Shown: positions 24,330 to 62,517, numbered from the stretch's first letter. The stretch: 64,000 nt of DNA from Acidimicrobiales bacterium (GCA_039583615.1 JAVKSQ010000005.1:1004-65003), one strand, 5' to 3'. The notes: a model not told the origin generated them from the sequence alone. Program-made: numbers and translations.

Positions 24330-24393
24330 GAGGGATCTGGCTGACCTAACCCGGAGCTGGGACCGGCTCGGACCAGACTGTACCATGGTATAA

Positions 24394-25143: not shown

Positions 25144-25149
25144 CATCCT

Positions 25150-26349
25150 GTGTCGTCCGGTGGTGCGTTCCGAGCCCTGGGCCAGCCGCCAAGGATGACG
25201 TCCCCCGGGATGGTCGCCGGACCCGCCGGAGGAAGCCACCCGGATGGGCGCCTGCGGGTGGGCGTCGACCGGTCGCTGCTGCGACCTGGCCGGGCCAGCG
25301 GGCACGGTCGGGTATGGGGGCAGGTCCTCGCCGGGCTGGCGGCCCATGTCCACCTCCGACCGGTCTCCACCGAAGGCCGAGCCCCGAGCTGGCGAGGCGA
25401 GAGAGGCTGGCAGGAGCCCGACATATGGCTGATCGACGGCCACCGGCCCCTGGCCAGAGACAGTGCCAAGCCCGTCGTCGCGGTTGTCTACGAGGCCGGC
25501 TGGTGCACTCCCTACCTCCGCCGCTTCCTGCATCCGGGTACTGCCCGGTACCTCGACGACAGCACCGACGCCGCCATGAGGGTGGCCGATCATGTGATCA
25601 CGCTCTCCGAGTGGAGCCGGTCACAGGTCATCGAGCGGTACGGCTTGTCGCCCCACCGGGTGCATGCCGTGCCCTTGGGGGTCGATCTCGACACGTTCAG
25701 GCCAGGGCTGGAGGGGGGCGTCGACATCGTGGCGGCCGCCTCCGCCCGCCCGGTGGACCACTATGTGCTCTTCGTGGCCACCATTCACCCGCGCAAGAAC
25801 CTGGCCGGTCTGCGCCAGGCAATGACAGCCCTTGCTCGCCGTGGCTTCTCCCAGTCTCTCGTCCTGGTCGCCGGGGCGATATCCGATTGGCGGGACTCAC
25901 CGGACCTGGAGTGGGTGGCGGAGGCCGACCTACCCGGCGCCACCGGCCACATGGTGCGAGTCCGAGAGCCCAGTGACACCTGCCTGGCGGCCCTGATGGC
26001 CGGAGCCGACGCCTTCTGCCTGCCGAGCTTCTCGGAGGGGTTCGGCCTCACCGCCTTGGAAGCGCTGGCCTGCGGGACGCCCGTGGTCGTCTCCAACCAG
26101 GGCGCGCTGCCCGAGGTGGTGGGGGGCGCCGGGTTGGTGGTCGAGCCTACGCCAGGCTCTCTGGAGAGCGCCCTGGCTCGGATCCTGAGCAGCTCTGACC
26201 TGTCAGACCGCCTGAGGAAGGCCGGGCGCGCCAGAGCGGAGGCGTTCGCCTGGCACCGGACGGTCTCCGGCTGGCTCTCGGTCATGGCCGGGGCGGCCGA
26301 GGATGGGGCCAGGTCCGAGCAACCGAGCACCACCCTGCGTGCTCGGTAG
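25150..26349 (+). CDS. Glycosyltransferase, GT4-like
   Basis: Strings LFVATIHPRKN and FCLPSFSEGFGLTALEALACGTPVVVSNQGALPEVVG (E-x7-E region) support the call. The true start is probably ATG 25195 or 25210, before RLRVGVDRS. Confidence 0.8.
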   Translation: MSSGGAFRALGQPPRMTSPGMVAGPAGGSHPDGRLRVGVDRSLLRPGRASGHGRVWGQVLAGLAAHVHLRPVSTEGRAPSWRGERGWQEPDIWLIDGHRPLARDSAKPVVAVVYEAGWCTPYLRRFLHPGTARYLDDSTDAAMRVADHVITLSEWSRSQVIERYGLSPHRVHAVPLGVDLDTFRPGLEGGVDIVAAASARPVDHYVLFVATIHPRKNLAGLRQAMTALARRGFSQSLVLVAGAISDWRDSPDLEWVAEADLPGATGHMVRVREPSDTCLAALMAGADAFCLPSFSEGFGLTALEALACGTPVVVSNQGALPEVVGGAGLVVEPTPGSLESALARILSSSDLSDRLRKAGRARAEAFAWHRTVSGWLSVMAGAAEDGARSEQPSTTLRAR

Positions 26350-26355
26350 CTGTGG

Positions 26356-27393
26356 TCAGGACCTTGTCGCCACCACTGCCAGCTCTTCGGCTCGGTCTGG
26401 GTTCTGCACGGAGCGGAGGTTCGCCACCAGCGTGGCACCCAGGTTGGCATCGGCGGGATCCCCGTTGTGGCGGGCGATGGCGGTGCTGGCCCCGAACATG
26501 GGGCCGGCATCGAAGGCCACCGGCATCCTCACCCACTGCGAGAAGCCGGCCTGGTGGAGGATCCTGGCCAGCCCACTTGCGGTAAAGAGGGTCAAGTGGC
26601 GGGGAGGCTCCAGCCCCCGCCAGTTCCTGCCATACCGTCGGTGACCGGCGGAGGCCAGGTTGGGAGTGGCGATCCACACCTTGCCGCCGGGTTTGAGGAG
26701 GCGCCAGCAGGATCGCAACAAGTCCACCGGCTGGTGGACATGCTCGATGACGTGGTTGACGGTGATGACGTCAAAGGTGCCCGGAGCGAAGCTGTCCTCG
26801 CCAAAGACCTCGTTGCGAACCGGAAGGCCGGCAGCCACGGCCAATGCCGCCGCCTTGGCATCAGGCTCGATGCCGTCCACCTGCCAACCAGCCGACCGCA
26901 TTTCCAGGAGGAACCGGCCACTGCCACAGCCGATATCGAGCAACCGCCGGGGACCCTCGGGCCGGTCCAGGTACCGTACCCACCGACTGGCCCGCCGCCG
27001 GGTGCCCGGAGCAAGGGCCAGCGCCAGCCCCCCGACCCGCCAACTGGGATTAAACTGATAGCCGTGCCTGCGCCGGAGGTAGCCGTTCCTGAGCGCTCGT
27101 CGCGAGTAGGCGATCATGGTGCTGGGCTCTGCGCAAGATACGTCGGGCGAGCAGTGAGTGAGGTAGGATCGGTAGGCGAAGGAGATGGAGTCGCGGCTGG
27201 GTCGTGGATTGAGATAAGCCGACTCGCACTGGTGGCAAAGGTAGATCTCCCAGCGGTCCGAAGAGCATTGGAACACGTGGTCGAGCAGGGCGGAGTACAA
27301 GGGTGTGCCTTGCTGGCCGCCGCAGGCGGGGCAGCATGTGAGGAGCTCTAAGTCGCCGCCCGCCCACTTGCCCGGGGTCATCGTCTCTTCCAT
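26356..27393 (-). CDS. Class I SAM-dependent methyltransferase with N-terminal Cys4 zinc-ribbon-like segment
   Basis: Strings CCPACGG...CHQCES and RLLDIGCGSGRFLLEM...FDVITVNHVIEHV...LKPGGKVWI support the call. The start is an ATG (MEETMTPG) with GAGGTG upstream. The track start at 27420 is a TTG. Confidence 0.75.
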   Translation of the reverse strand: MEETMTPGKWAGGDLELLTCCPACGGQQGTPLYSALLDHVFQCSSDRWEIYLCHQCESAYLNPRPSRDSISFAYRSYLTHCSPDVSCAEPSTMIAYSRRALRNGYLRRRHGYQFNPSWRVGGLALALAPGTRRRASRWVRYLDRPEGPRRLLDIGCGSGRFLLEMRSAGWQVDGIEPDAKAAALAVAAGLPVRNEVFGEDSFAPGTFDVITVNHVIEHVHQPVDLLRSCWRLLKPGGKVWIATPNLASAGHRRYGRNWRGLEPPRHLTLFTASGLARILHQAGFSQWVRMPVAFDAGPMFGASTAIARHNGDPADANLGATLVANLRSVQNPDRAEELAVVATRS

Positions 27394-27505
27394 GGGGTGC
27401 TCACCTCGGGACCGAACCAACGCAACACGGACGGTCAGCGTCGAGGCTAGCAGCCCTCCACAGACGGGCCTTTCTCGAAGTCAGTCAGTCCCGCACTGAT
27501 CAGGA

Positions 27506-28516
27506 ATGGAGAAAGTGGGTAGCCACTCACCGCTCGTGAGCGTGATAGTTCCCACCTATGACCGCCCAGAGTACCTGGGGCAGGCTCTGGCCAGTGTGCT
27601 GGCGCAGCGCTGCGACGATCTGGAGGTCATCGTCTCGGACGACGCTGGTCCCAACGACATTGGCTCACTGGTCGAGTCATTTGGGGACCGGCGGCTCAAG
27701 TACAGGCGCAATACCACCAACCTGGGAGTGCTGGGCAATACCGTAGCTGCACTGGGCCAGGCCGGGGGAAAATACATCGCCATTCTCAACGACGACGACC
27801 TGTGGGGCCCACTGTTCCTGGAGCGACTGGTGGCCGCCCTGGAGGATAGGGATGATCTCGTCGTCGCCTTTTGCGATCATTATATCATCGACAGTGAGGG
27901 CCGGATCGACGCCGCGGCGACGGAGCGCCGTACTCATGACTACAGCCGGGATCGCCTTAGCCCTGGAGTACACCATCCGTTTGGTGAGATCGCGCTGGTC
28001 AACAGGAGCATAGGTGCCGTCATGGGAGCGGTCTTCCGACGCCGATCCATTGACTGGGCGGCCCTCCCAGCCGAGGCCGGACCCGCCTACGACACATGGA
28101 TCTTGTATCTGGCGGCCAAGAGTGGCCTGGGCGCATGCTATGTCCCTGAGAGACTGACATATTATCGGTACCATACAGGTCAGCAGACCTTTCAGAGCGT
28201 CCTGGACTTCCACCTCGGACTGGTCTTCTGCTACCAGGCCTTCCTCGATGACCAATCGCTGTGGACGATGCATCGCCAGCTTCGAGCGCTCCTGGGTACC
28301 GCCTACGTGGACTGCGGGCTCACCCTGGTGCGGGCCGGAAGGGCCAGGGAGGCCAGAGCCAGCCTGATGCGAGGCCTGTGGCTGGGCCCCGGACCCAGGT
28401 CCGTGGTCGGGCTGCTGCTCACGCTGGGTCCCAGCTGGGCGCCTCGATGGGTGACTCGGGTCGTGCGGACGTCCAAGGGCCTGGCTGGGGCGGGAGGGGT
28501 CGCCGGCCGGGACTAG
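27506..28516 (+). CDS. Glycosyltransferase family 2
   Basis: Strings VSVIVPTYDRPEYLGQALASVLAQ, EVIVSDDAGP and AILNDDDLW support the call. Confidence 0.85.
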   Translation: MEKVGSHSPLVSVIVPTYDRPEYLGQALASVLAQRCDDLEVIVSDDAGPNDIGSLVESFGDRRLKYRRNTTNLGVLGNTVAALGQAGGKYIAILNDDDLWGPLFLERLVAALEDRDDLVVAFCDHYIIDSEGRIDAAATERRTHDYSRDRLSPGVHHPFGEIALVNRSIGAVMGAVFRRRSIDWAALPAEAGPAYDTWILYLAAKSGLGACYVPERLTYYRYHTGQQTFQSVLDFHLGLVFCYQAFLDDQSLWTMHRQLRALLGTAYVDCGLTLVRAGRAREARASLMRGLWLGPGPRSVVGLLLTLGPSWAPRWVTRVVRTSKGLAGAGGVAGRD

Positions 28517-28525
28517 GTTGTCCGG

Positions 28526-29239
28526 GTGGCCCGGGCTGATCTCACCGGCTGGCCTCGCCGACCGGGTCGCCTTCCTGCCGCCCTGCTCCGGCGGGTGCTG
28601 CCCAGCCATCCACGGTTCGGCTTCGCTTGGGTCCACCTCGAGGACGGCTCGATCACCTTCCGCGAGGAGGGCTTCGTGGCCGCGGGCTCACCGGCGTCGC
28701 TCTTGGCGCGACACAACTACGAGACTGCCTGCATCCGGCATCTGCTGAGAGACGTCGACGCCCTTCGGTCCCTGGAGGTCGGATGCGGCTACGGCCGACT
28801 GAGCCCCGTGCTGGCCGAGTTCTCCCGGGCCCACCTCGCGCTCGACATCAACGAGGCGGCCCTGGAGCAGGCTCGCACCATGTACCCCGAGCTCACCTTT
28901 CAGAGAGCCTCGGCCTCCGACCTGCCGTTTCCGAGCGACTGCTTCCAGCTGGTGACCACCTGGACGGTGGTTCAGCACATCCCGCCAGGCCAGATAGCCG
29001 CCGCATGCTCGGAGCTGATCCGGGTCCTGGTCCCCGGTGGGGTCCTGCTCACCTGCGAAGAGACCCGCCAGGCGGGGCGTCCGGCGGGTGGGCGGCGACC
29101 ACCACACACCTGGCACCGTGGCGTGGAGGACTACCAGCGCCTGTTCGAGCCCCTCAGCCTGGCCTACTCATCTTTCATCCACGAGCTCGACCGGCTGCCG
29201 GGAATGCAGTCGCCTGGACGGGTGATGCTCTGGCGCTAG
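28526..29239 (+). CDS. Class I SAM-dependent methyltransferase
   Basis: Strings SLEVGCGYGRLSPVLA, FQLVTTWTVVQHI and LVPGGVLLTCE support the call. Confidence 0.75.
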   Translation: MARADLTGWPRRPGRLPAALLRRVLPSHPRFGFAWVHLEDGSITFREEGFVAAGSPASLLARHNYETACIRHLLRDVDALRSLEVGCGYGRLSPVLAEFSRAHLALDINEAALEQARTMYPELTFQRASASDLPFPSDCFQLVTTWTVVQHIPPGQIAAACSELIRVLVPGGVLLTCEETRQAGRPAGGRRPPHTWHRGVEDYQRLFEPLSLAYSSFIHELDRLPGMQSPGRVMLWR

Positions 29240-29266
29240 CCTGGATCTGCGCTAACGGAAGGAGCC

Positions 29267-30307
29267 ATGACCGATCCCGTGGCAGCTGCGGGAGGACGCT
29301 CATCTAGTTGGGCCAACTGGAATTGGGCGACATCCAAGGCGGGTGATGCCTGCCGGTTGGCGGCCGGGATATGCAGGGGGTTGCACGGCCTTCGCGGGCG
29401 CGGGCGCGGGGGCCATCTTCTTCATGGGCTCATGCGTGAGCAGCTGGGCGGCGCAGCTGCTGGCAGCTGGGACATCCCGATGCGGAGGGGCCATGAGATG
29501 CGCTCGCCCTGGTCCACCGTCCAGAGCTGGACGGCGGCCTTCACCGGCCAGTACGACGAGGCGGAGATAGACCTCCTGCTTAGCTTCGCCGACCAGGGAA
29601 CCCTGCTGTTGGACGTGGGCGCCTCGGTCGGGTTCTGGACCGTCCCACTCGCCATGGCGGCCCGGGATAGGCAGGGCCGCGTCCTGGCCATCGAGCCTCT
29701 GTCCGCCAACGTCGGATTGCTGAGAGCCAATCTGGCGCGCAACGGTCTGGGCCATGTGGTGGACATCTGTCCGGTAGCCCTGGGCTCGGACCCGGGCGAG
29801 GCAGTGGCGGTGGTGGAGCCGGGAGGTGCTGGAAATGCGTGGGTGGACCCGCCCCTGCCCGAGGGCGGCCAGACCTGGGGGGCGGCCTGGACCGAGACCG
29901 TCCGGGTAACACCGCTGGACGCCATGGCGCTGCCGCCCTCGTGCATCGGCCTGCGGTGCAGCGTCGTCAAGCTCGACGTGGAGGGCTTGGAGATGGCGGT
30001 TCTGGAGGGTGGCGCCAACTTCATGACACGTCACCGACCCGTCCTCCTCGGTGAATTCTCTCCAGAGTGCTTCGCCCGACGGGGGGTGCCCGGCGACGCA
30101 CCCCAGCGGTGGGCCGAGAGCACGGGCTACTGCTGCCACGAGGTGGTGCACGAGCGCAACAGCCGCATCTCGGACCAGTACCGGGTCGTCCTGGTGGCTC
30201 GCCGGAGCGGAGAGGCCCGTGGTGACGGAGCCCTTCTCCTGACCCCGGCCGACCTGCTGGCCCCGGACGCCCTCCTGACCCGGGGGGACATGGCCGTCCC
30301 GCCCTGA
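29267..30307 (+). CDS. FkbM-family methyltransferase
   Basis: Strings LLDVGASVGFWTVPLA, LAIEPLSANVGLLRANL and KLDVEGLEMAVLEG support the call. AAGGAG precedes the ATG. Confidence 0.8.
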   Translation: MTDPVAAAGGRSSSWANWNWATSKAGDACRLAAGICRGLHGLRGRGRGGHLLHGLMREQLGGAAAGSWDIPMRRGHEMRSPWSTVQSWTAAFTGQYDEAEIDLLLSFADQGTLLLDVGASVGFWTVPLAMAARDRQGRVLAIEPLSANVGLLRANLARNGLGHVVDICPVALGSDPGEAVAVVEPGGAGNAWVDPPLPEGGQTWGAAWTETVRVTPLDAMALPPSCIGLRCSVVKLDVEGLEMAVLEGGANFMTRHRPVLLGEFSPECFARRGVPGDAPQRWAESTGYCCHEVVHERNSRISDQYRVVLVARRSGEARGDGALLLTPADLLAPDALLTRGDMAVPP

Positions 30308-51179: not shown

Positions 51180-53186
51180 GTGCTCATCGCGCAAGAGGAT
51201 GTGGCCAAGGTGAGGGCCGCCATCGACCTGGTCGCCTTGGTGGGTGAGCACCTGGCGCTCAAGCGCCAGGGCCGGCGATGGGTGGGGCTGTGCCCCTTCC
51301 ACGCCGAGACCACTCCGTCGTTCGGGGTCAACCCCGAGCTGGGTCTCTACCACTGCTTCGGGTGCCAGGCGTCGGGGGACGCCATCACCTTCGTGCGAGC
51401 GGTCGAGCACCTCGACTTCGTGGACGCGGTGGAGTGGCTGGCCGGGCGGGCCGGGATCAGCATCGCTCGAGAGGAACCTGGCTCCGGCCGTCGACCGGAT
51501 GGCCGGCAGCGGTCCCGGCTGCTGGAGGCTATGGAACGGGCGGTGGCCTGGTACCACGAGCGACTTCTGGCCCACCCAGATGGTGCCCCGGCTCGGGACT
51601 ACCTGGCGTCCAGGGGATATGACAAGGAGGTGGCTGGCGCCTTCCGGCTGGGGTGGGCGCCTCACGACTGGGACGCCCTGGCCCGAGCCCTCAAGCTTCC
51701 CGAGGAGGTCCTCACCGCAGCGGGCCTCGGCTTCGTCAACCGCGCCGGTCGGGTGCAGGATGCTTTTCGGGGGCGGGTGATCTTCCCCATCTTCGATCCG
51801 GGGGGACGGGCGGTGGCCCTGGGGGGCCGGGTGTTGCCCGGGGCGGGGCAAGTCGGTGGCCGAGAGGCCGGGCCCAAGTACAAGAACTCCCCCGAGACTG
51901 CCATCTACTCCAAGCGCCGGACGCTCTACGGGCTCAACTGGGCCAAGGCGAACGTGGTGGAGACCGGTGAGGTGATCGTGTGCGAGGGCTATACCGACGT
52001 GATCGCCTTCTTCGCCGCCGGAGCGCCCCGGGCAGTGGCGACATGCGGCACGGCCCTGGGCGAGGACCACCTCCGGGTGCTCAGGAGCTTCGCCCAGCGA
52101 GTGGTCCTGGCCTACGACGCCGACCGCGCCGGCCAGGCGGCCGCCGAACGGGTCTACGAGTGGGAGCGTCACCACGACCTGGACATCGCCGTGGCTGGCC
52201 TCCCGGGCGGTTCCGACCCGGCCGAGCTCGGTCAGCGAGATCCGGGGGCGCTGCTGGCCGCGGTCGAGCAGGCCCGGCCCTATCTGGCCTTTCGGGTGGA
52301 GCGGCTCCTCGGCGATGCTCACCTGGGCACCGCCGAGGGCCGAGCCAAGGCGGCCGAGGCGGCGCTGTCAGCCGTGGCCCAGCATCCCAACGAGCTGGTG
52401 CGCGACCAGTACGTGATGGACATCGCCGACCGCTGCCGGGTGCCAGCCGAGCGGTTGAGGGCCATGATGGCCAGCGGTCGTCCCAGGGCGGCGGCCCAGC
52501 ATCGGCTGGGTCACTCGGCTCGGCGTCCGGGGACGGCCGACGGCCGGCCCGGTCACCGAGGTGAAGGGGCCGACCGGGACGGGGCTGGACCTGGTCAGGC
52601 CGGCGCCGGGGGGTCGGATGGCCCCGGTGGCCCCGACGGCCGGGGACGCCGCCGAGGTGGCGTGGCCTCCGCAGACAACCAGGCCGGCTGGGACGGCCAA
52701 GAGCGGGAGCACGGCCGGTCCGCCGCCCCGGTCCCCACCGTGAGGTTGGCGCCAGGGCCGGGGACCGAAGCCCTGCGACTGGCTGTCCACCGGCCCCACG
52801 AGGTCGCCGACCGGCTGGAGGAGTTCCTGTTTGCGGACGGTCTGCAGCGCCGGGCCTTCGGCGCTCTGGCCAGCTCGGCCACCCTGCACGAGGCCATCGC
52901 CAATGCCGACCCGGAGGTGGCTGCGCTCCTCGGGCGCCTGGCCCTGGAGGACACCGAGGCGGACGCCGGCGACGTGGTCAACTTGCTGTTGGCCGACGCC
53001 CTTCGCCGGGCCCTGGAGGACCTGGAGGCCGATGCCCGGCGCTCGTACGAGAGCTTTGCCGAGCTGGCCGGGGACGCCACCTGGCTGAGGCAGGCGCTGG
53101 TCGAGCTCCGGGAGGCGCCTGCCGGATCAGTTGCGCCGCCTCGGTTGGTAGCCTGGTTGCGAGGTCGGGCGAAGGAGCAGTCATGA
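51180..53186 (+). CDS. dnaG: DNA primase
   Basis: Contains the zinc finger [25 protein letters not shown] and TOPRIM strings [12 protein letters not shown] and [13 protein letters not shown]. Confidence 0.92.
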
Positions 53187-54658
53187 GCAACGCCGGGACC
53201 GTGCTCGCCACGGCAGGGTTCCCCGAGGATGGGTTCGATCGCTTGTTCGAGATCGCCCGCCAGCGTGGCGTTCTCACCCAGGAGGACCTCATGGCCGTGC
53301 TGGAGACGGTGGAGCTGAGTGCCGATCTGATCGACGCCGTGGTCGACCGGGTGAAGGCAGCGGGGATCCACTACGCAGAGCCGGCCGACGATCTCGCCGG
53401 GGTGTCCGCCGCCCCCGTCGCCGGCCGGACCGACCATCTCCCTCCGGTAGGCGCCGCCCTTGAGGCTGACCCGGCGGCCGGCCTTACCGGTCCCAGCGAG
53501 GCGGTGGCGACCCGGGCTACGCCGGGTCGAGACCAGGTGACCAGCCTTGGCCATCCCGGCGACAACGCGGTGACCGCGCTCCCCCCCTCGGGCGAGGCGC
53601 CGGCCGATGCCCGTCCATTGCCGGCCAGGAGACGACGGGGACCGGCCAGGACTCGACCCGCAGCCACCGGCCGGGTCCGCCGGGACAGCGGGCGCGACAG
53701 CCGCGGTGACGAGGAGGCTCTGGGCCCGGCGGCCGACCCGGTGCACACCTATCTCCGGGAGATCGGGAAGGTCCCCCTGCTGCGCACCGAGGAGGAGGTG
53801 GCGCTGGCCCGGCGAGTGGCCGAGGGCATTGCCGCCGCTGAGAGACTGCTCGCCTCGGAGGACCACGGCGACCGCGGCCCTGACTTCGAAGAGGAGCTCC
53901 TGCGGGCCGAGCGGCTGGTGACCAGCGGCATCGAGGCCAAGCAGTGCCTCATCGAAGCCAACCTGCGCCTGGTGGTATCGATCGCCAAGCACTACCGAGG
54001 GCGAGGGCTGGCCTTTCTGGACCTCATCCAGGAGGGCAATCTCGGCTTGATGCGGGCGGTCGAGAAGTTCGACTACACCCGGGGCTTCAAGTTCTCGACC
54101 TACGCCACCTGGTGGATCCGCCAGGCGCTCACTCGTGCCCTGGCCGACCAGGCCCGGACCATCCGCATCCCGGTCCACATGGTCGAGCTGATCAACCGCA
54201 TGCTCAACGTTCAACGCCAAGGGGTGCAGGAGCTCGGTCGGGAGCCGACGGCCGAGGAGGTGGCCGGCTGGTTGGAGATGCCGGTCGAGCGGGTGCGAGA
54301 GCTGCAGCACCTCAGCCAGGAGACGATGTCCCTGGAGCAGCCGATGGGGGAGGAGGAGGGCTTCAGCCTCTCCGATCTGATCGAGGACCAAGAGGCGGTG
54401 GCACCGGCCGATGCGGCGGCCCGGGCCCTGCTCAACGAGGCGGTGAAGAAGGCGCTGGCCCAGCTGGACGACCGGGAGGCCGAGGTGGTGCGGCTGCGCT
54501 TCGGGCTCGACGACGGCCAGATGCGCACCCTCGAGGAGGTTGGGCGGGTGTTCGGCGTAACCCGCGAGAGGGTGCGTCAGATCGAGACGAAGACGCTGAA
54601 CAAGCTACGCCACCCGATGCACAGCCAGACGCTGCGGGAGTACCTGGACGAGGCTTGA
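53183..54658 (+). CDS. rpoD: Primary-type RNA polymerase sigma factor (group 1, RpoD/SigA-like)
   Basis: Strings [64 protein letters not shown] and RERVRQIE support the call. The ATGA start overlaps the dnaG stop. Confidence 0.93.
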
Positions 54659-54677: not shown

Positions 54678-54902
54678 TTACAGGGGCCAGAGATTGCTGA
54701 TCTTTCCGCCGACCAAGCCCTGAGCCTTCTCGGTGCCCGAGCCGACCAGGTCCTTGGCCTTCTCGGCCACCTGGCTCACCACCGGTGACTTGAGGGCAGC
54801 TTCGGCCAAGCTGGTGACGTTGGCCTTGATCTGCTCAGGGCTCATGGTGCCGAGGTAGTAGCCAGCGGCCAGCCCGGTCAGCAAGCTATAGCGCATTTTC
54901 AT
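54678..54902 (-). CDS. Small hypothetical protein (74 aa, N-terminal hydrophobic helix)
   Basis: Track ORF MKMRYSLLTGLAAGYYLG... with an AGAGG-like sequence upstream. Convergent with rpoD. Confidence 0.45.
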   Translation of the reverse strand: MKMRYSLLTGLAAGYYLGTMSPEQIKANVTSLAEAALKSPVVSQVAEKAKDLVGSGTEKAQGLVGGKISNLWPL

Positions 54903-54973
54903 GGGGTCACTGTACCTCTTTCCGGCGGTCCGTGCTGGATTGGGCGGAAGGCGCTGGTAGGGTGCCGGGCGTT

Positions 54974-55046
54974 TCCGGGGTAGCTCAATCGGCAGAGCAC
55001 GCGGCTGTTAACCGCGGTGTTGAGAGTTCGAGTCTCTCCCCCGGAG
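54974..55046 (+). tRNA. tRNA-Asn (anticodon GTT)
   Basis: Hand fold: TCCGGGG TA GCTC AATCGGCA GAGC A CGCGG CTGTTAA CCGCG GTGTT GAGAG TTCGAGT CTCTC CCCCGGA G. Confidence 0.9.
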
Positions 55047-55063
55047 CACCCGCCGCAGTCCCC

Positions 55064-55136
55064 GGGCCCGTAGCTCAGTGGTCAGAGCATGGGACTCATA
55101 ATCCCCTGGTCGTGGGTTCGATCCCCACCGGGCCCA
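55064..55136 (+). tRNA. tRNA with CAT anticodon (elongator Met; Ile2 cannot be excluded)
   Basis: Hand fold: GGGCCCG TA GCTC AGTGGTCA GAGC A TGGGA CTCATAA TCCCC TGGTC GTGGG TTCGATC CCCAC CGGGCCC A. The G1:C72 pair argues against an initiator. Confidence 0.85.
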
Positions 55137-55194
55137 CTGATGTCTCTCCTTTTCAGCCGCCTTGTTCCGTCTGTTCAGCCCCTCTGATGAGGTC

Positions 55195-55230
55195 AACCCA
55201 ACGGTCGACCCAACAGCTAACCCAACAACG
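55195..55230. repeat. Three 12-bp-spaced direct repeats (A/G)ACCCAAC between tRNA-Met and the integrase remnant (arm-site-like)
   Basis: aacccaac at 55195-55202, gacccaac at 55207-55214 and aacccaac at 55219-55226, read directly. Confidence 0.7.
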
Positions 55231-55248
55231 GGGAGGGGGCCATTGCCG

Positions 55249-55550
55249 GGGAGTGTGCGGCAGCGGCGCCCGGGAGTGTGGGAGCTGAGGGTCTACGCCG
55301 GGAAGAGGCCAGGCGGGTACGCCATCGCCACACCAGCTTCGTGGGCTCCAAGCGGCCTGCTGGCACCGAGCTGGCCCGCCTGGTCGCCGAGCAGGAGCGG
55401 GCGCCAGTGGTGGCCGACGAGGAGAGCCGGGGTGGGAACCGGTCACCACCGTCAACGACGCCATCGGCGGCTGGCGGGACAACGGATGGCAGGACCTCAG
55501 CCCCACCACCACCCGGCGCTACCAGAGCCTGTGGACGGTCCACGCGCCTG
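55249..55550 (+). pseudogene. Tyrosine-integrase N-terminal remnant, split over three frames and lacking the catalytic domain
   Basis: Frame a reads GSVRQRRPGVWELRVYAGK. Frame b reads RHTSFVGSKRPAGTELARLVAEQE. Frame c reads TVNDAIGGWRDNGWQDLSPTTTRRYQSLWTVHA. These strings match the usual N-terminal arm-binding and SAM-like region order of actinobacterial phage-type integrases. Nothing integrase-like follows about 55550. Confidence 0.6.
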
Positions 55551-55652
55551 GGCCCCAGTCATGTCGGGCTGACGACGGGGCGCGAACAAGAAAGCCGCCG
55601 CGTAGGTGTGCGTAAGCGCCACCTCGGAGACCGTCCACATAGAACCCTACTT

Positions 55653-55702
55653 ACAAGAACAGAACGGTCATCCTTGCATTTTGTTCTTGTCAACGCTAGC
55701 CT
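55653..55702 (+). promoter_or_regulatory. Candidate promoter (TTGCAT-17 nt-TAGCCT) overlapped by a perfect 9-bp inverted repeat upstream of the cassette
   Basis: ACAAGAACA (55653-55661) and TGTTCTTGT (55682-55690) are exact reverse complements with a 20-nt spacer. TTGCAT lies at 55674-55679 and TAGCCT at 55697-55702, about 22 nt before the first cassette ATG (55725). Confidence 0.3.
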
Positions 55703-55724
55703 CACCCGTGAACAGGGAGCGAGC

Positions 55725-55958
55725 ATGGCAGAGCAGGGGAAGCCCAGAGGTCGCACCGTCTTCTCCGTTCGACTGGATGGCTTGGAACTGCCGTCGGAGA
55801 TCACCCTTCGGATCGCCGTCGCCGTGCGCCGCGCCATTCTTGCCGAGATGGCTGAAGTCGATCTTGTGTCCGGCTTTCGCGTCCAGGATTTGGCAGCCCT
55901 GGAGAGCGGTGGCGGGACGCAGGGAATTGCGATCGTCGCCGACGTTGCGGAGGACTAG
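55725..55958 (+). CDS. Small ORF (77 aa), candidate precursor peptide or accessory; no Cys, C-terminal ...LESGGGTQGIAIVADVAED
   Basis: This is the last 77 codons of track ORF 55278..55958. The ATG is preceded by AGGGAG. The stop is followed after 2 nt by the next GTG. Confidence 0.5.
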   Translation: MAEQGKPRGRTVFSVRLDGLELPSEITLRIAVAVRRAILAEMAEVDLVSGFRVQDLAALESGGGTQGIAIVADVAED

Positions 55959-55960
55959 CT

Positions 55961-56377
55961 GTGCGCTCGATGCAAGTCGCCAGGGCTCACGAATGCCTCT
56001 GCCCGAGCGGACGTTGCCGGGAGGGGGCCAAGTTGCTGGGCGTAGTTGGGACTGATGGCTGTGTCAGCTTCCTGACGCCAGCCATTCCAATAAGCGAGGT
56101 CTTTGTTGACAAGGCATTGGCGATCGGGCGCACCGGTGCCCGATTCCGTTTCGCTGAGCCATGCGCGCAGAGTGACTGTGAGCACTGGGCTGGGGAGCGC
56201 TGCCAGTTGATCGATCGTTTCATCGTAGACGGACCGTGCGACGATGTGGACTCCTCGAGAACGAAGCTCCCGGTGTGTGGCATCCGGGTCTCTTGCCGAT
56301 GGTATGGACAGCGGGGCCGGCGTGCCTGCGCGGTGTGTCCCATGGTCATTCGTGAGCCTTTAGCGGCGATTTCATAA
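55961..56377 (+). CDS. Cysteine-rich protein (138 aa, 12 Cys), function unknown
   Basis: Track ORF. Cys strings are ECLCPSGRC, DGC, EPCAQSDCEHW, ERC, GPC, PVCGIRVSC and RACAVCP. It is tightly coupled to the upstream ORF. The overlapping minus ORF is low complexity and contrary to the operon direction. Confidence 0.5.
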   Translation: MRSMQVARAHECLCPSGRCREGAKLLGVVGTDGCVSFLTPAIPISEVFVDKALAIGRTGARFRFAEPCAQSDCEHWAGERCQLIDRFIVDGPCDDVDSSRTKLPVCGIRVSCRWYGQRGRRACAVCPMVIREPLAAIS

Positions 56378-56408
56378 CGAAGATTTCTCAACCAGAAGGA
56401 GGAGTCGC

Positions 56409-56657
56409 ATGGAAGACGAACCGAGAGAGGATGAGGATACCGTCGTCCCGATCAGGGAGCGGCATGTCGTCATGACGCCTACCGGCGTTACCTTTGTTCT
56501 CAATGAGGAAGACCAGCGTCAGGCTCGTCGCTGCCTTGAGCGGACCGGCAACATCACCATCAATTTCGGGGAAGTGACTGTCTCAAGTCTCAGTGAGATC
56601 AGGCGGCTCGAGCGGATCGCTGACGGGCCCGATGGCGGTGTCGGTCCGATCGACTGA
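56409..56657 (+). CDS. Small ORF (82 aa), candidate RiPP precursor; acidic N-terminus, C-terminal ...RIADGPDGGVGPID
   Basis: A strong SD (AAGGAGG at 56396-56402) lies 6 nt before the ATG. The stop is followed after 2 nt by the GTG start of the DUF692 gene. Confidence 0.6.
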   Translation: MEDEPREDEDTVVPIRERHVVMTPTGVTFVLNEEDQRQARRCLERTGNITINFGEVTVSSLSEIRRLERIADGPDGGVGPID

Positions 56658-56659
56658 CA

Positions 56660-57541
56660 GTGCCAACGCCCAGGTTGACGCCGGCCATCGGTCTCGGCTC
56701 GGATGCCGTTGCCGTGGGCATGGCATACAGCAGAGCCGCTGCAGGCCTTGTATGCGACTTGCTCGATGATCTCGACTACGTCGAGTATCCCTATGAGTTG
56801 CTGATGTGCAACGCCGCCGCGGCCGAGATGGCTTGCAACTCGACCGCCGTGCTGCACTGCGCAAGTCTGTCATTGGCGTCGGGTGACCCACCCGACGCGG
56901 CGGTCCTCCACACCGTCGCCGACTGGGCCGATCGGCTCGACTCTCCCTGGGTGGGTGAGCATTTCGCATTTGTGGCCGCCCGGAACCCTGGCCCGTGGGC
57001 AGGGGACGACCCGGGGCGGGAAGACAGAGTCTTCAACATCGGCTTTGCGATCAGCCCGCCGTTGAACGCCGACACGGTCGAGAGCGTTGCAGAGGCGTTG
57101 GCGGCCGTCGTGACGGTTGTGCGACGACCATTCGTTATCGAGAACTCCCCGGTCTATTTCCCAATGCCGGGTTCCGGGATGGGGCAGGGAGAAGCGTTCA
57201 CGGCACTAACTCGCCTCAGCGATGTTGGCGTGCTGATGGACTTGGCCCATCTGCTGATTACCTGCGACACGATGGGATTGGACCCGTTGGCTGAGCTCCG
57301 CCGCTTTCCGCTCGATCGCGTGGTCGAGGTGCATCTCTCTGGGGTTTCGCGGGATTCCGGTGTGCTGTGGGACGATCATGCGTCCGCCCCCGTAGCAGCG
57401 GAGTACGAGCTCTTGAACGTCGTACTCCATGATGCGCCAGTTCGCGCGATCACGCATGAGTACAACTGGGCGCCTAGGTTTCCCGCGGACGTCGCCCGCC
57501 GGGAGATTGACCGCACCCACCAGATACTGGGCTCCAGGTAG
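56660..57541 (+). CDS. DUF692-family protein (MbnB/TglH-like multinuclear non-heme iron oxidative enzyme, MNIO)
   Basis: Family-order strings are present: AIGLGSD, VLHCASLSLAS, WVGEHFAF, PFVIENSPVYF, GVLMDLAHLL, VVEVHLSG, LWDDHAS and ITHEYNW. These provide His/Glu/Asp ligand candidates in the order I recall for MbnB-type TIM-barrel enzymes. Confidence 0.8.
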   Translation: MPTPRLTPAIGLGSDAVAVGMAYSRAAAGLVCDLLDDLDYVEYPYELLMCNAAAAEMACNSTAVLHCASLSLASGDPPDAAVLHTVADWADRLDSPWVGEHFAFVAARNPGPWAGDDPGREDRVFNIGFAISPPLNADTVESVAEALAAVVTVVRRPFVIENSPVYFPMPGSGMGQGEAFTALTRLSDVGVLMDLAHLLITCDTMGLDPLAELRRFPLDRVVEVHLSGVSRDSGVLWDDHASAPVAAEYELLNVVLHDAPVRAITHEYNWAPRFPADVARREIDRTHQILGSR

Positions 57542-57569
57542 TGACCGAGGGCAAGGCGGCCCCGAGGCC

Positions 57570-59513
57570 ATGACGGTCGAGACTCGCGCCGTCAACGCCA
57601 TGATCGCGCGAGGTCTCGTCGAACCCTCATTCCTTGTCGCTCTCGATCAGGATAGAGGCCGGGTACTCGACGACATGGGGATCTCCAGCGGGACGCGCCA
57701 GGATTTCATCGGACTTGATTGCCATCGCCTGGCGCTGATGGCCACGTTCATATGTAAGGTGAAGAACAATGACCTCTGGAGCACCCTGCCCCTAACCCGG
57801 GCGCTGCTACAGGAATACGGCAGCGAGCTAGAGGTGTTCGGGGTCTTCAGCCGACGGAGTCCGCAGCGTGGTGGCTCGCTTCACGAGCGCGTCAGCGCGT
57901 TGGTCGAGTGCCTTCTGTCCTACGCGTCCGCTCGCCGCGGCCAGGTCCCAGGCCTGGAGGATGTCGTCCGCCACGAGTGGCTTGTAGCCCGGTTCTCGAA
58001 CGGGTGGGGACTAGAGGCATCGTCGTTGGACACGGTCGATGACGACCCTCCCGAGGCGCGGCCAGCGAACCTCTGGCGACCAAGGATTCGAGGGACGGTC
58101 TTGGTGCAGAGCTACGAGCACGACCCGCTGCGTGTGCAGCTTGCATGGCAAGCACGGGAGTGGACCAGATCGATGGCTCCGCCGACCGAGCCAACATTTT
58201 TGTGCTACTCGTTGGGCGACACGCCGGGAAGCCGGCTCCGAGTCTTTAGGATGGATCCAGCCGTGGCTCTGATTGTCGGCTGGGTGGATGGTCAGCGGTC
58301 TCCGATCGAAATTGCCAATCTCATGGGTGCAGGCACGGACGCGGCGCTCGTTGTCCGAGTCCTTCTCGCCGCAGCTCAGGAGGGGATCATTCGTTCCCCG
58401 AGCGCTGAGGTCTTGGCCGCGCTTCAACGACATCACGGAGACGTCGGTGGCCTGCCGGCTAAAAGCTCGAAGGAGCACGAACCACTCTTCGGCGGTAGCC
58501 GTCAGCGGGGGCCGGATCAAGTGCTCGATCTTGTGAGCGGCTACGCCGCTGGCCGCCTCCTATACACGCTGCAGCGAATCGGAGCCCTTGGGCGCTTCGG
58601 CACTCCGAGTAGGGCTGCTTCTGTCGCGGTGGAGCTCGGCGTTGATCGAGCGTGGCTCGAGGCCGTGGTGCAGTTTCTCGCGGTGACTGGAGGCGTCTTC
58701 CGCCAGCTCGACGGCGGCCGTTACGTCGTCGAGTTGGACGAACGCGAACGACAGCGGCTGAACTTCGAGTTGACCAAGTTCGTCGGGGCCTACGGAGCGT
58801 GCCTCGATGCGGTTGGGCCGGCTCCTGACGTCGTCGACGCTGACGCATTTGCTGATGCGTTCAGCGCGTCGGTTCACAGCCGTGCTGATCGCCCCTACCA
58901 TGGCTCGTTGATTCCGGGACTGCTCCGCGAGTTTGGCGTGGCATCGGGACTCTTGGATCTTGGCTGTGGGACCGGTGACCTTCTCATCGATCTAGCGGTC
59001 AGCGACGAGGGCTTCCACGGGATCGGAATCGATGAGAACCGCGCGATGTGTGCTCGTGCGGTGGCGGAGGCCGGACGAGCAGCTGTCCTGCGACGAGTGC
59101 GCATATTTAGTGGCGATGCGTTCGATGTCCTGGCAAATCTTCCGCTAGATGCGATGTGCCCGATGACGGCGGCGCACTCGGCGAGCTTCTTCAACGCCCT
59201 GTTTGCGAACGGGCATCGCCGAGCGGTTGACATCCTCACGCTGCTCAGCGACCGGCTCGGCCGCCGCCTTTTGTTCATCGACGACTACTACGGGCAGCTG
59301 GGTGTGGACTTCGATGCTCATGTTGGTCTGACATGGTCGATGATGCAGGACCTCGTCCAAGTCTGTTCCGGGCAGGGCGTGCCACCGAGGGAGCGGGTCG
59401 ATTGGGAGGCGGTGTACCAACGTGCGGGGTGCCGGCTTCTCCGCTCGTATGAGGGCACGCTCGGCGGGTTCCCGCGCTTTATCCACGTGGTCCAACTCGC
59501 AGCCGCCTCGTAG
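57570..59513 (+). CDS. Three-module fusion: MNIO-partner-like N-terminal region, PqqD-like recognition element, winged-helix plus class I SAM O-methyltransferase
   Basis: The start is ATG 57570 (MTVETRAV...). Mid-region: RVFRMDPAVALIVGWVDGQRSPIEIANLMGAGTDAALVVRVLLAAAQEGII (PqqD/RRE-like). Then LVSGYAAGRLLYTLQRIGALGRFGTPSRAASVAVELGVD (OMT dimerisation/wHTH-like). Then LLDLGCGTGDLLIDLA and IGIDENRAM (SAM motifs I and II). Confidence 0.7.
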   Translation: MTVETRAVNAMIARGLVEPSFLVALDQDRGRVLDDMGISSGTRQDFIGLDCHRLALMATFICKVKNNDLWSTLPLTRALLQEYGSELEVFGVFSRRSPQRGGSLHERVSALVECLLSYASARRGQVPGLEDVVRHEWLVARFSNGWGLEASSLDTVDDDPPEARPANLWRPRIRGTVLVQSYEHDPLRVQLAWQAREWTRSMAPPTEPTFLCYSLGDTPGSRLRVFRMDPAVALIVGWVDGQRSPIEIANLMGAGTDAALVVRVLLAAAQEGIIRSPSAEVLAALQRHHGDVGGLPAKSSKEHEPLFGGSRQRGPDQVLDLVSGYAAGRLLYTLQRIGALGRFGTPSRAASVAVELGVDRAWLEAVVQFLAVTGGVFRQLDGGRYVVELDERERQRLNFELTKFVGAYGACLDAVGPAPDVVDADAFADAFSASVHSRADRPYHGSLIPGLLREFGVASGLLDLGCGTGDLLIDLAVSDEGFHGIGIDENRAMCARAVAEAGRAAVLRRVRIFSGDAFDVLANLPLDAMCPMTAAHSASFFNALFANGHRRAVDILTLLSDRLGRRLLFIDDYYGQLGVDFDAHVGLTWSMMQDLVQVCSGQGVPPRERVDWEAVYQRAGCRLLRSYEGTLGGFPRFIHVVQLAAAS

Positions 59514-59516
59514 CCG

Positions 59517-60188
59517 ATGGCCACAGCGACCATTAGGCCCGTGGCAGCGACCTGGGACGGTGTTTTGCCGCCCAGCGAGCTCAGTCAGCTGTTGGAGTAC
59601 GCGGTGTATCGCGAGAGCGAGTTCGTCGACACCCAGGTCCTCGGTGCCGATGATGGCGCGGTCTCGGTCGTGGATCGGAACATGAGACGGAACACGCACT
59701 TACGGGGCACCGCTAATGTGCCATGTGCTGTCATGCGGCGCCTCAAGGAGTATATCCCAGTGTTGGCCCGGTCCATTGGTCAGGATGATGACAGATGTTC
59801 AGACGGTGTGTACGAGGCAGAGATTACCGCCACGGGACATGGTGGCTTCTTCACCGCTCACGTCGACGATGCGAATGCTCGTGTACGGGATCGCTCGATC
59901 AGCTTCGTTCTCTTCTTCAGCGAATGCCCCAGACCATTTCGAGGTGGCCATCTCTGCATCGAACGCGACTGGAGGGACGACGATCAACTGTTTATCTTCG
60001 ATGCTGTGCGGGATGGCCGACTGAGCAGGTCTGAGGTAGCCGAGATCATAGAGCCCAAAGCCAACCGGCTCGTCGTCTTTGCGAGTCATCGGCTCCATGA
60101 GGTTCGGCCGGTGTGGACCAGGTCGAGCCAGTTCCGGTGCTCGAGATTCACGGTGACCGGCTTCCTCCGATCCTCCGATCGGCGTTAG
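59517..60188 (+). CDS. 2-oxoglutarate/Fe(II)-dependent oxygenase (prolyl-4-hydroxylase-like)
   Basis: FFTAHVDD provides the HxD, ISFVLFFS follows, and NRLVVFASHRLHEVRPV provides the distal His and Arg. It lies 3 nt after the preceding stop. Confidence 0.75.
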   Translation: MATATIRPVAATWDGVLPPSELSQLLEYAVYRESEFVDTQVLGADDGAVSVVDRNMRRNTHLRGTANVPCAVMRRLKEYIPVLARSIGQDDDRCSDGVYEAEITATGHGGFFTAHVDDANARVRDRSISFVLFFSECPRPFRGGHLCIERDWRDDDQLFIFDAVRDGRLSRSEVAEIIEPKANRLVVFASHRLHEVRPVWTRSSQFRCSRFTVTGFLRSSDRR

Positions 60189-60220
60189 AAACACCTACTT
60201 TCCTGGCTCTATGCGTCTGA

Positions 60221-61240
60221 GTGGGGAGACCAGGTGCGGATCCCGGAGCGGGGAAGTTCGTCTTGCCAAGTAACGCCGCCGACGTGGAGGGCACCGTCAT
60301 GGCTGGCGGTATCGGGACGCCCGGCTCCGAGACCAGCCGCTTGTGGATGCGAAGGAGAGGATCGGCCTTCCTGGCGCGCTGGCCCAGCGTCTCGTTCTGG
60401 ACCCGGCGGCGAACCTTGTTCCTGGAGCTCTCGAAGGAGGTCCGCCAAAGCGTCCGGGCCGAGGTGGCCAAGGCCAGGGAAGGGCTGAGCGAGGGCCAGG
60501 GTCACCAGGTCGTCGTCGACCCGCTGCTCCGCTACCGGATCACCGTGGAGATCCTGACCGAGTCGGGCCAACTCCGGGTGATGGACGAGCGGCTGGAGGC
60601 GCTCAAGGCCGACGGGACCCGGACGCCAGCCGACGCCCGTTTATCTGGCAGGAGGTGGCCGAGAGCTGGATCCGCCCTTCGTCGGGAGGAAGAGGGCCAT
60701 ACCCTCTACGAGGAGATCGGCCAGGACCGCCCGATCGCCTCCAAGCGGCTCTACCCTCCCCACTACCCCCACATCTCCGCCTTGGGCGAGGAGCTGGCCC
60801 GCTGGCGGACCTACTACCTGGAGCCCTCGGCCATGCGCAGGGAGACGCCGCTGCGGGAGGTGACCGTCCTCCCACCCGACGGCAGCGACTGGAGCCTCTG
60901 TCGGTGGTGGGCTACGAGGAGCCCGAGAACGGTGTTCACCCCGACCGTCTCTCGATGGTGGGCCGGGTCCTGTCGAGCGCGGCCGAGCGCGGCCGAGCGC
61001 GGCACGACGTAGTACCTGGTGAACACCCACTCGCCGCTGCTGTCGGAGTATTTCCTGGGGGCGGGCGCTGCGGCCCGGATCGTCCGCTGCTCCCGCCACG
61101 GCCGGGAGACCCTGTTCGAGACCCTCGACGACCTCAACCTCCTCAGTGCCAGTACCATCGCCGACGGGCTGGCCGACGACTTCTCCCCACCGCTGGCCTC
61201 GACATTCGCCCAGCGAATGGTGCGGGGAGACTTCCGCTGA
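60221..61240 (+). pseudogene. ABC-type (AAA_15/21-like) ATPase remnants spread over three frames
   Basis: Fragments are RYRITVEILTESGQLRVMDERLEAL, ...LARWRTYYLEPSAMRRETPL, VVGYEEPENGVHPDRL (Walker B/D-loop-like, about 60907-60950) and NTHSPLLSEYF (H-loop-like, about 61019-61050). They sit in different frames. No intact Walker A was seen. Confidence 0.5.
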
Positions 61241-61420
61241 TCGCCGTGGGCCTGTTCGCCGAGGGCGACGGGCACCGGGCCCTCGTGGGCCTCATTGCCC
61301 TGGGCCCACTCCACCATCTCCCACACCACCACGTACTACACACTAATCACAGCGTACTACCGAGCTGGTGGCATCGACCACCAGCCGCGACGCACGGACG
61401 CCCGCTCCTGCCAGTCCGGC

Positions 61421-61834
61421 TCAGACTGGTCTCGACAGGGGGCGGGCAAGGCTGAGCTCATGGCCGTCGGGATCGCGAATGTGGAAGTAGCGCTCGCCCC
61501 ACGGCCCATCGGCCGGCTCGGTCTGTGGTGCGAACCCCGCCTCCAGCGCCCGGCGGTGCATGGCGTCGACATCGTGCACCCAGAAGACGACTCGGCCCCA
61601 GGGGGGGCTTCCGACCGGGCGGGGGGCGTGCGCCTGCAGGTTGAGGTAGCTCCCGCCTACCTGGTAGCTGGTGAACGACGCGTCCGGTCCCCCGAAGAGC
61701 AGCTCGAAGCCCATGACCCGGTAGAAAGACACCGCCTCGGCCATGTCCGAGGTGAGCAGCGTCACCGCACTGAGGCGCTCGATAGCCGGTTGCTCGGTCC
61801 TCACCGCCTCGCATCTTCTCAGATGGCGAAGCAT
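61421..61834 (-). CDS. VOC-family (glyoxalase/bleomycin-resistance/dioxygenase fold) protein
   Basis: Strings LSAVTLLTSDMAEAVSFYRVMGFEL and GERYFHIRDPDGHELSL support the call. The start is uncertain (the second ATG of the track ORF was chosen). Confidence 0.75.
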   Translation of the reverse strand: MLRHLRRCEAVRTEQPAIERLSAVTLLTSDMAEAVSFYRVMGFELLFGGPDASFTSYQVGGSYLNLQAHAPRPVGSPPWGRVVFWVHDVDAMHRRALEAGFAPQTEPADGPWGERYFHIRDPDGHELSLARPLSRPV

Positions 61835-61938
61835 CGGGAGGATGGTCCTTGGCCGCGGTACCCTCGCCGCCAATAAAGGCAAGCGTGCCGTGACCGTGGC
61901 AAACTGTTGGCGACACGGCCGCCTACCCAGGAGAATCG

Positions 61939-62517
61939 ATGAATCGCAGGGAGCTCGTCAGCGCTGTCGCCACCCACACTGGTGTCGATTCTCGTGACGT
62001 GGACAAGGTGTTGCGAGGTGCCACCGAAGTCATCGAGGCAGTGGCAGCCAAGGGCGAGCAGGTGACGATCAGCGGCTTCGCCAAGTTCGCTCGGGTGGAT
62101 CGGCCGGCCCGTATGGCTCGCAACCCAGGGACGGGGGAGCCGGTCAAGGTGAGAGCGTCCAAGAAGGCAAGGATCACCCCCCTCAAGGGCTTCAAGGACG
62201 CGGTGATGAGGCCCATGGCCGCCCCCAAGCTGGCCAAGGGAGTGTGGCCGCCCGTGCCAGCCAAGGCTTCGCCAGGTGCAGGCTCAGCTCGCCGGGCCGG
62301 GCCGGCCCGGGCGGTGACATCCAGGGCTCCAGCCAGGTCGTCGCCCGCCAGCAAGGCTGGTGCGAGCAAGGCGGCCGCCACCAAGCCCGCCCCGCCAGGA
62401 CCGCCAGCCAAGCGGGCTGGAGCCGCCAAGGCAGCCCCAGCGGCCAAGAAGCCCGCCAGCGGCCCTCGCTATGTCAGTCGCCTGCCTTCCCGCCAAGGCG
62501 GGCCGTCTCCTTCTTGA
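61939..62517 (+). CDS. hup: HU-family nucleoid protein with long Ala/Lys/Pro-rich C-terminal tail (actinobacterial HupB/Hlp type)
   Basis: MNRRELVSAVATHTGV...VTISGFAKFARVDRPARMARNPGTGEPVKV is followed by a PAKKA-like tail. AGGAGA precedes the ATG. Confidence 0.88.
   Translation: MNRRELVSAVATHTGVDSRDVDKVLRGATEVIEAVAAKGEQVTISGFAKFARVDRPARMARNPGTGEPVKVRASKKARITPLKGFKDAVMRPMAAPKLAKGVWPPVPAKASPGAGSARRAGPARAVTSRAPARSSPASKAGASKAAATKPAPPGPPAKRAGAAKAAPAAKKPASGPRYVSRLPSRQGGPSPS

Follow-up and report, generated by a model that had tools for sequence, protein, structure and literature searches.

A probable decayed left junction of a small integrative element at the rpoD-linked tRNA-Met of an Acidimicrobiales genome

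Lambda Int is the prototype of the heterobivalent tyrosine integrases, and its core measures 15 bp. In archaeal integrases of the SSV1 type, integration splits the gene into int(N) and int(C) halves: attP lies inside int, so that tRNA sequence is found where the gene is broken, and int(C) is located at the other junction. Among the AB-domain-containing integrases of Gram-positive origin, the IntTn916 subgroup is defined by a beta-insertion in the catalytic domain, and beta-beta-beta-alpha is the published topology of the arm-binding domain (PMC8138268).

We analysed a stretch of 64,000 nt (hereafter the window) from a metagenome-derived Acidimicrobiales contig, in which a sequence-only reading had pointed to an island junction at a tRNA-Met gene. 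We consider it very probable that positions 55138-55552 are what decay has left of the left, attL-side junction of a small integrative element, which would have belonged to a tRNA-targeting tyrosine integrase family and inserted into the 3' end of tRNA-Met. The integrase family of the remnant is abundant in Acidimicrobiales and so far undescribed. The feature in the window itself is an ordinary decayed island junction, and the comparative by-product of the analysis is modestly new, stays inside a mechanism that is well known and leaves the view of how integrases work unchanged.

The tRNA-Met junction and the integrase remnant

The integration target and its surroundings are made up of the following features.

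54974..55047, plus strand: tRNA-Asn(GTT), host gene 5' of the target tRNA (ARAGORN, Rfam RF00005; kept in L081 and L085)
55064..55137, plus strand: tRNA-Met(CAT), the integration target (ARAGORN, Rfam RF00005)
55093..55137, plus strand: candidate attL core, 45 nt, from the anticodon loop to the tRNA 3' end (by analogy with the complete family elements L041, L043 and L048)

Alignment with the closest genomes bears out the proposed junction, as blastn homology stops at the 3' end of tRNA-Met, at 55137 in the comparison with L081 and at 55140 in that with L085. Upstream genes are 72-91% identical to those of L081 and L085 (DnaG 72-73% and the conserved part of RpoD 83% for the window against both genomes; PPDK 87% and tRNA synthetase 91% against L081), and the genes downstream of tRNA-Met are unrelated. 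Such a break in synteny at a tRNA 3' end is what marks a tRNA-linked genomic island. The alignment to relatives, which the sequence-only reading had proposed as a check, delivered this tRNA-linked breakpoint but neither an attL/attR pair nor an empty site could be defined from L081, L085 and L086. L081 and L085 carry unrelated genes 3' of tRNA-Met, and L086 was also unusable as an empty-site reference, its tRNA-Met being inverted and its downstream genes unrelated. The reason is that the nearest relatives share only 72-83% identity in DnaG/RpoD and have different downstream genes.

We also searched the window itself for an attR copy. A pattern search that allowed up to 3 mismatches in 22 nt gave no match, no exact match of at least 12 nt to the tRNA 3' segment was present, and local alignment recovered at best 12-15 of 45 positions, equal to a control sequence. 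The remaining 8.9 kb of the window contains no attR copy, and the variable region does not come to its right end there; the island may extend past position 64000.

The rpoD-linked tRNA-Met is occupied by the same integrase family in other genomes too (L076, L066). In L076 (1016-5263), the CCCAAC repeat occurs three times beside this tRNA-Met, the family int breaks off at residue 118, and an XRE/HipA-like pair and an IS607-like serine recombinase lie downstream of the cut gene; here another island has decayed independently at this hotspot.

Some further observations concern the host region. dnaG and the primary sigma factor gene (window 51180-54658) overlap by 4 nt (ATGA). The order dnaG-rpoD-small ORF-tRNA-Asn-tRNA-Met is common to the window, L081 and L085; the dnaG-rpoD-tRNA part is found in L086 too, where tRNA-Met has the opposite orientation. 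The CAT tRNA at 55064-55137 has G1-C72, and ARAGORN cannot separate tRNA-Ile2 from elongator tRNA-Met; we take this tRNA to be no less close to tRNA-Ile2 (lysidine type) than to elongator tRNA-Met. Elsewhere in the window, positions 18000-30000 show a lowered G+C content (0.65-0.68 versus 0.70-0.74) and may be another acquired region.

Downstream of tRNA-Met, the following remains of an int gene were found.

55230..55245, plus strand: GGGGAGGGGG, resembling a Shine-Dalgarno sequence, and behind it the TTG (55243-55245) that once started int (sequence reading)
55243..55317, plus strand: int pseudogene segment A, residues 1 to ~25, MPGSVRQRRPGVWELRVYAG (frame 1; tblastn, translation)
55299..~55421, plus strand: int pseudogene segment B, residues ~20-60, RVRHRHTSFVGSKRPAGTELARLVAEQE (frame 3; tblastn, translation)
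55424..55543/55552, plus strand: int pseudogene segment C, residues ~62-101/105, GWEPVTTVNDAIGGWRDNGWQDLSPTTTRRYQSLWTVH (frame 2; tblastn, translation)

The frameshift map was obtained by tblastn of twelve full-length relatives against the window, in which, for example, residues 1-23 were placed at 55249-55317 in frame 1. This similarity check recovered the three-frame integrase stub, and all three peptides previously picked out as integrase N-terminal strings in different frames were found. Where the window has its TTG start (55243), relatives such as L001 and L066 begin with ATG or GTG at the aligned position. Similarity to the family ends at 55552, and the stub corresponds to residues 1 to ~103-105 of a ~390-residue integrase. 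It comprises the N-terminal domain and the linker and breaks off ~30 residues into the core-binding domain. No integrase residues beyond 105 were detected by tblastn anywhere in the 64-kb window; the catalytic domain is missing from it and about three quarters of the int gene is gone. The window copy, lying in three frames and offering no uninterrupted ORF with a catalytic domain, does not qualify as a functional integrase. No Pfam or NCBIfam model matched the stitched 104-residue stub peptide, and homology was therefore established by sequence searches. In frame 3, the sequence continues with RLGPSHV (55547-55567), which can be set beside SLGPYDV of the family; the match is too short for significance and we do not claim it.

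Both frame changes lie at or near G-runs, the second in CCGGGG and the first near GGCGGG/AAGAGG, so that the frame changes could be sequencing errors, which the truncation cannot be. It would go further to regard the frameshifts, and possibly the truncation as well, as sequencing or assembly errors in a metagenome-derived contig. The position of both changes in or near error-prone G-runs and the shortened int ORFs of 18 of the 80 relatives, nearly all of them MAGs, are in keeping with this explanation, but we judge it very unlikely, given that ~850 nt of coding sequence are not removable by indel errors and that tblastn found no trace of residues beyond 105 in the window. Moreover, both flanks fit one genome, with perfect synteny upstream and host-like G+C from 60.4 kb, and a chimera would need two mis-joins.

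The decay, the order of whose events we infer, would have left the three repeats described below, the ribosome-binding site, the start codon and codons 1 to ~103, with two frame changes. With the catalytic domain gone and no attR present in the window, the element can no longer excise and the downstream DNA is fixed in place. The view of the island as immobilised is in line with this finding that the window holds neither a catalytic domain nor an attR copy.

The arm-type repeats and their integrase family

The stub peptide matches 32 database proteins from Acidimicrobiales with 47-62% identity, and at least 241 relatives were present in 185,579 species-representative genomes scanned. Of these, 80 were examined as loci (L001-L080); the comparators are all metagenome-assembled genomes except L029, a Ferrimicrobium acidiphilum strain. 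At 74 of the 80 loci, the match lies 79-160 nt downstream of a same-strand tRNA, and the tRNAs next to family int genes are those for Lys, Thr, Arg, Ile, Met, Pro, Gln, Glu and Ala. The family int ORFs of the 80 loci are mostly 384-436 aa long. In four full-length relatives, the catalytic domain matches Pfam PF00589 (Phage_integrase) with E values of 1e-17 to 1e-20 at residues ~185-368, and a SAM-like core-binding domain is located at ~75-150 in full-length relatives; these domain matches concern family members, not the window copy. A full-length member shares only ~25-30% identity with phage integrases, and matches in the PDB span the core-binding and catalytic domains only (E ~1e-5).

Complete elements were delimited at three loci, L041, L043 and L048 (4.6-8.2 kb; 4.6, 6.7 and 8.2 kb), each bounded by a direct repeat of 44-45 bp that extends from the tRNA anticodon loop to the 3' end. 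Their cargo is mostly without Pfam annotation and contains no recognisable biosynthetic genes.

Shortened int ORFs (39-335 aa) occur at 18 of the 80 loci and are not explained by genes running off the contig. Likewise, the 32 best database proteins are all 80-177 aa long, several of them frameshifted near NGWxDLSP. Short ORFs in this family may reflect either frequent family decay or common MAG indel errors at G-runs.

Between tRNA-Met and the int remnant, the window carries the following features.

55138..55242, plus strand: remnant of the int-proximal arm of the element (P'-arm equivalent), from tRNA to int, placed like the spacer between tRNA and int at 73 family loci
55195..55202, plus strand: arm-type repeat 1, AACCCAAC; its CCCAAC core lies 60 nt after the tRNA end, which is the family median
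55207..55214, plus strand: arm-type repeat 2, GACCCAAC; 12-bp phase as in 68 of 75 family pairs
55219..55226, plus strand: arm-type repeat 3, AACCCAAC; a third direct copy is also found in L051 and L076

The three copies of (A/G)ACCCAAC, reported earlier at 55195, 55207 and 55219 with a spacing of 12 bp, are exact to the base (12 bp start to start; consensus RACCCAAC). Their placement immediately 3' of tRNA-Met is right as to order and loose as to distance, as repeat 1 starts 58 nt past the tRNA end. The phased triple occurs once in the 64-kb window, and 0 of 100 shuffles gave any match. The heptamer ACCCAAC alone is present at chance frequency (6 seen versus 4.8 expected), and it is therefore the clustering and the phase that carry the signal.

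We found the same arrangement throughout the family. At least two phased [C/G]CCAAC motifs are present within 160 nt upstream of int at 73 of 80 loci, the two members of a pair are 12 bp apart in 68 cases out of 75, and the first motif starts a median of 60 nt past the tRNA end, the same as in the window; the background amounts to 14 such phased pairs in 2.2 Mb. On the second arm, in a test covering three complete elements only, the motif recurs ~130-150 nt inside attR in all three (L041, L043 and L048), forming phased pairs in L041 and L043 and having the same locus-specific flanking bases in each of the three. Arm-type repeats on both attP arms, distinct from the core, are hence a property of the family.

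The first base of the hexamer varies together with one residue of the integrase. WELRV is found with CCCAAC at 65 loci (window included) and WQLRV with GCCAAC at nine, with no exceptions (74/74), and the C to G switch affects both repeat copies. The nine WQLRV/GCCAAC loci represent four lineages, whose nearest neighbours, according to the identity of the core-binding and catalytic domains, are CCCAAC loci. An inverted motif copy is located downstream at 23 loci and agrees in its first-base class in 23/23. The variable position lies in the second predicted beta-strand of the N-domain, for which AlphaFold2 gave a beta-beta-beta-alpha arrangement at residues 3-56 in two models (pLDDT 88.6 and 74.6). 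Matches to Pfam Arm-DNA-bind_4 at the right position were seen for 2 of 22 members, below threshold (best E 0.0027). A Foldseek search of the two AlphaFold2 models against the PDB returned no significant match to known arm-binding domains, and a profile search of PDB sequences with the N-domain found nothing.

Collectively, the conserved 12-bp pairs, the recurrence near attR and the covariation with the N-domain make it well supported that the repeats in the window behave as arm-type integrase sites, as the sequence-only reading had suggested from their placement. The N-terminal domain would bind these arm repeats, and the E/Q-C/G covariation would amount to a specificity switch found in nature, in which one residue of a predicted arm-binding domain is matched to one base. 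In the literature searched, we found no earlier description of the CCCAAC arm motif or of the E/Q-C/G covariation.

A TAnnnT sequence is present 30 nt or less upstream of the repeats in 68 of 73 loci, which suggests a further overlap of the repeats with the promoter or 5' UTR of int. They could accordingly serve to control int transcription, bound by Int or another regulator, rather than as recombination arms, the more so as they lie between this -10-like TAnnnT and the start codon and as the second repeat and the inverted copy form an operator-like near-palindrome at 23 loci. We regard such an exclusively regulatory role as unlikely, since the motif recurs with the same flanks inside attR, far from the int promoter, in 3/3 complete elements, and since the covariation with an N-domain residue points to Int as the binder. 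The roles of arm site and operator are, however, not mutually exclusive, and given the position of the repeats between TAnnnT and the start codon, int probably also regulates itself.

A second motif, CAG[G/C/T]T[C/A]A, is located 9-12 nt past the tRNA end at 33 of 73 loci (background 0.01 per 35 nt) and could be a host-factor, Xis or core-flanking site. In the window, the int-proximal arm has neither this motif nor TAnnnT, both of which are present in relatives. The motif also follows tRNA-Met in L085, with no integrase there, and this site may therefore hold an even more eroded remnant.

These comparisons show the layout of an intact element. int starts 80-160 nt past the tRNA and reads away from it, two or three 12-bp-phased [C/G]CCAAC(A) repeats are located 20-80 nt upstream of int, and further copies of the motif occur ~130-150 nt inside the other end. 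The N-terminal beta-beta-beta-alpha domain would bind the arm repeats, the Glu/Gln of the WELRV strand reading the first hexamer base, while the core-binding and catalytic domains would act on the tRNA core, after the manner of lambda-type heterobivalent integrases. This attP grammar of a 44-45 bp tRNA core and 12-bp-phased CCCAAC repeats on both arms could help to delimit islands in the mostly uncultured Acidimicrobiales genomes.

The RiPP cassette and the ATPase pseudogene

Beyond the end of integrase similarity, the window continues as follows.

55553..55725, no strand assigned: junction spacer, 173 nt, AT-richer and unique, resembling neither the integrase family nor cassette homologues (G+C down to 0.51)
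55726..60188, plus strand: six-gene aminopyruvatide-like RiPP cassette (Pfam, NCBIfam; G+C 0.625)
60413..61234, plus strand: AAA_21/AAA_15 ATPase pseudogene (tblastn with ~430-aa homologues), consisting of the parts below
no position: ATPase residues 1-88 (Walker A), absent
60413-60889: ATPase residues 89-247, frame 2
no position: ATPase residues 248-324, deleted
60889-61002: ATPase residues 325-362, frame 1
60986-61234: ATPase residues 354-431, frame 2, with an in-frame stop

The cassette consists of two small ORFs (one of 77 aa, the other of 138 aa and Cys-rich) and of genes for a precursor like ApyA, an MNIO like ApyH, an ApyI-ApyS fusion and a 2OG-Fe(II) oxygenase; all six genes are intact and co-directional. 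Since the NCBIfam scores are below cut-off (ApyA 39.7 versus 40, ApyH 294.5 versus 400, ApyS 194.6 versus 400 and ApyI 76.4 versus 200), the cassette is Apy-like and not an equivalog. A single ORF of 694 aa combines ApyI and ApyS, a 2OG-Fe(II) oxygenase is found in place of an ApyO-type P450, and the 77-aa and the Cys-rich 138-aa ORFs are two extra small conserved genes. The same six-gene order is present in L087, whose copy is uninterrupted and 46-76% identical at the amino-acid level, and in L088; there is no integrase, ATPase or tRNA in the vicinity of either. DNA similarity to L087/L088 begins at window position 55751-55755. Scanning for sigma-70 promoters revealed no consensus match, and one terminator-like site was detected, inside the ApyA-like ORF.

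G+C content was 0.73 in the int stub, 0.625 in the cassette, 0.69 in the ATPase pseudogene and 0.71 in the host. The stub and the ATPase pseudogene are thus host-like, 55553-60188 (0.61-0.63 versus 0.71 for the host) has the deviating composition of an island, and host-like G+C resumes at 60.4 kb. According to the sequence-only reading, integrase similarity stops at about 55550, exactly where G+C drops and the cassette begins. The first of these points holds. The values of 0.69-0.75 across the stub, however, give way to 0.51-0.65 only from ~55600, ~50 nt past the end of similarity, and conserved cassette sequence starts at ~55726-55755. In intact family elements, int is host-like in G+C and the cargo 0.01-0.07 lower (int versus cargo 0.68 versus 0.61 in L041 and 0.70 versus 0.63 in L043). 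The G+C step is not diagnostic, because a high-GC int beside lower-GC cargo is normal in intact elements.

The ATPase homologues P0154 and P0155 have an N-terminal Walker A (G-x-N-x-x-GKS), which the window copy lacks. The gene is indeed frameshifted and without an intact Walker A, as described before, and has suffered an internal deletion and a stop codon in addition. We found nothing that links the ATPase to the int-bearing element. The longest ATPase fragment, at 60299-61012, is 100% identical to the 237-aa public protein P0153, a mere fragment that has been annotated as a gene.

How the cassette came to lie beside the stub can be explained in two ways. It may have arrived later and overwritten the interior of a decaying island, of which the stub and the ATPase pseudogene would be the surviving edges. 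Intact cassette genes between two pseudogene flanks, the lower G+C of the cassette (0.625; stub 0.73, ATPase 0.69), and homologues in the unrelated contexts of L087 and L088, without family integrase, ATPase or tRNA, all agree with such a replacement, as does the finding that neither cassette nor ATPase occurs within 10 kb in any of the 80 family loci (0/80). On the other hand, ordinary cargo would be expected to give such a G+C step as well, selection acting only on the cassette would account for its integrity amid decaying neighbours, nothing ties the ATPase to the int-bearing element, and no repeat, IS end or recombination scar was seen at either cassette boundary; scanning 54900-62000 for repeats gave chance-level pairs only. 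We therefore consider replacement a real possibility that stays somewhat short of probable.

Alternatively, the cassette may be original cargo of the tRNA-Met element, in which case an internal deletion would have taken the int codons from ~105 on together with sequence before the cassette, and attR would have been lost by decay or deletion. An int followed by lower-GC cargo on the same strand is the layout of L041 and L043, the cassette is co-directional with int with no terminator-like site between them, and the 173-nt spacer resembles neither partner. Intact family elements, however, measure only 4.6-8.2 kb and have no recognisable biosynthetic genes, Apy-like genes are present in 0/80 loci, and no attR was found within 8.9 kb. 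Again, this history is plausible without being the expected one, and we regard replacement and original cargo plus internal deletion as about equally likely. Of the proposal that the cassette replaced the interior of an older, now immobilised island, immobilisation stands; replacement does not follow, as the G+C step is undiagnostic and the ATPase unlinked.

In either case, the stub places an aminopyruvatide-like cassette in a horizontally acquired region at a recurrent hotspot, the rpoD-linked tRNA-Met, and the cassette region can no longer excise. There is a very slim chance that the surviving repeats and the ribosome-binding site and start of int, which lie 5' of the cassette and in the same direction, have been co-opted as its control region. 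Binding could then fall to another integrase of the family encoded elsewhere in the genome, through its arm-binding domain, or to a short N-domain protein, should the first frameshift be a sequencing error.

Comparison with known integrases and att sites

The family resembles lambda Int in its order of a small N-domain, a core-binding domain and a catalytic domain. Its attP likewise recalls that of lambda (P1, P2, P'1-P'3), with short direct repeats on both arms, a tandem cluster on the int-proximal arm and an arm sequence that differs from the core sequence. In contrast to lambda, the core of the family is a 44-45 bp tRNA 3' segment instead of 15 bp, the repeats are phased at 12 bp, the N-domain has no detectable sequence or Foldseek similarity to that of lambda, and the protein of the window is dead. 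This comparison is drawn partly from PMC8138268.

With SSV1, the window shares an N-terminal integrase fragment that adjoins a tRNA-linked junction. An SSV1-type split integrase was considered, also in view of the 32 short database homologues, and rejected because the geometry is wrong: the tRNA lies upstream of an intact start, the break at 55552 is without tRNA-like sequence, and full-length relatives sit whole at attL.

Among phage proteins, the best matches to a full-length member are integrases of a Microcystis (cyanobacterial) phage and a Rothia phage, while by record count the matches come mostly from phages of Streptococcus, Mycobacterium, Paenibacillus and Arthrobacter. Compared by topology, the beta3-alpha N-domain predicted for the family would resemble the arm-binding domain of Tn916 Int. 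Identity to the integrases of Gram-positive phages and elements is at most ~30%. The family is like the integrases of actinomycete elements and mycobacteriophages in that insertion occurs into tRNA 3' ends and the tRNA is regenerated.
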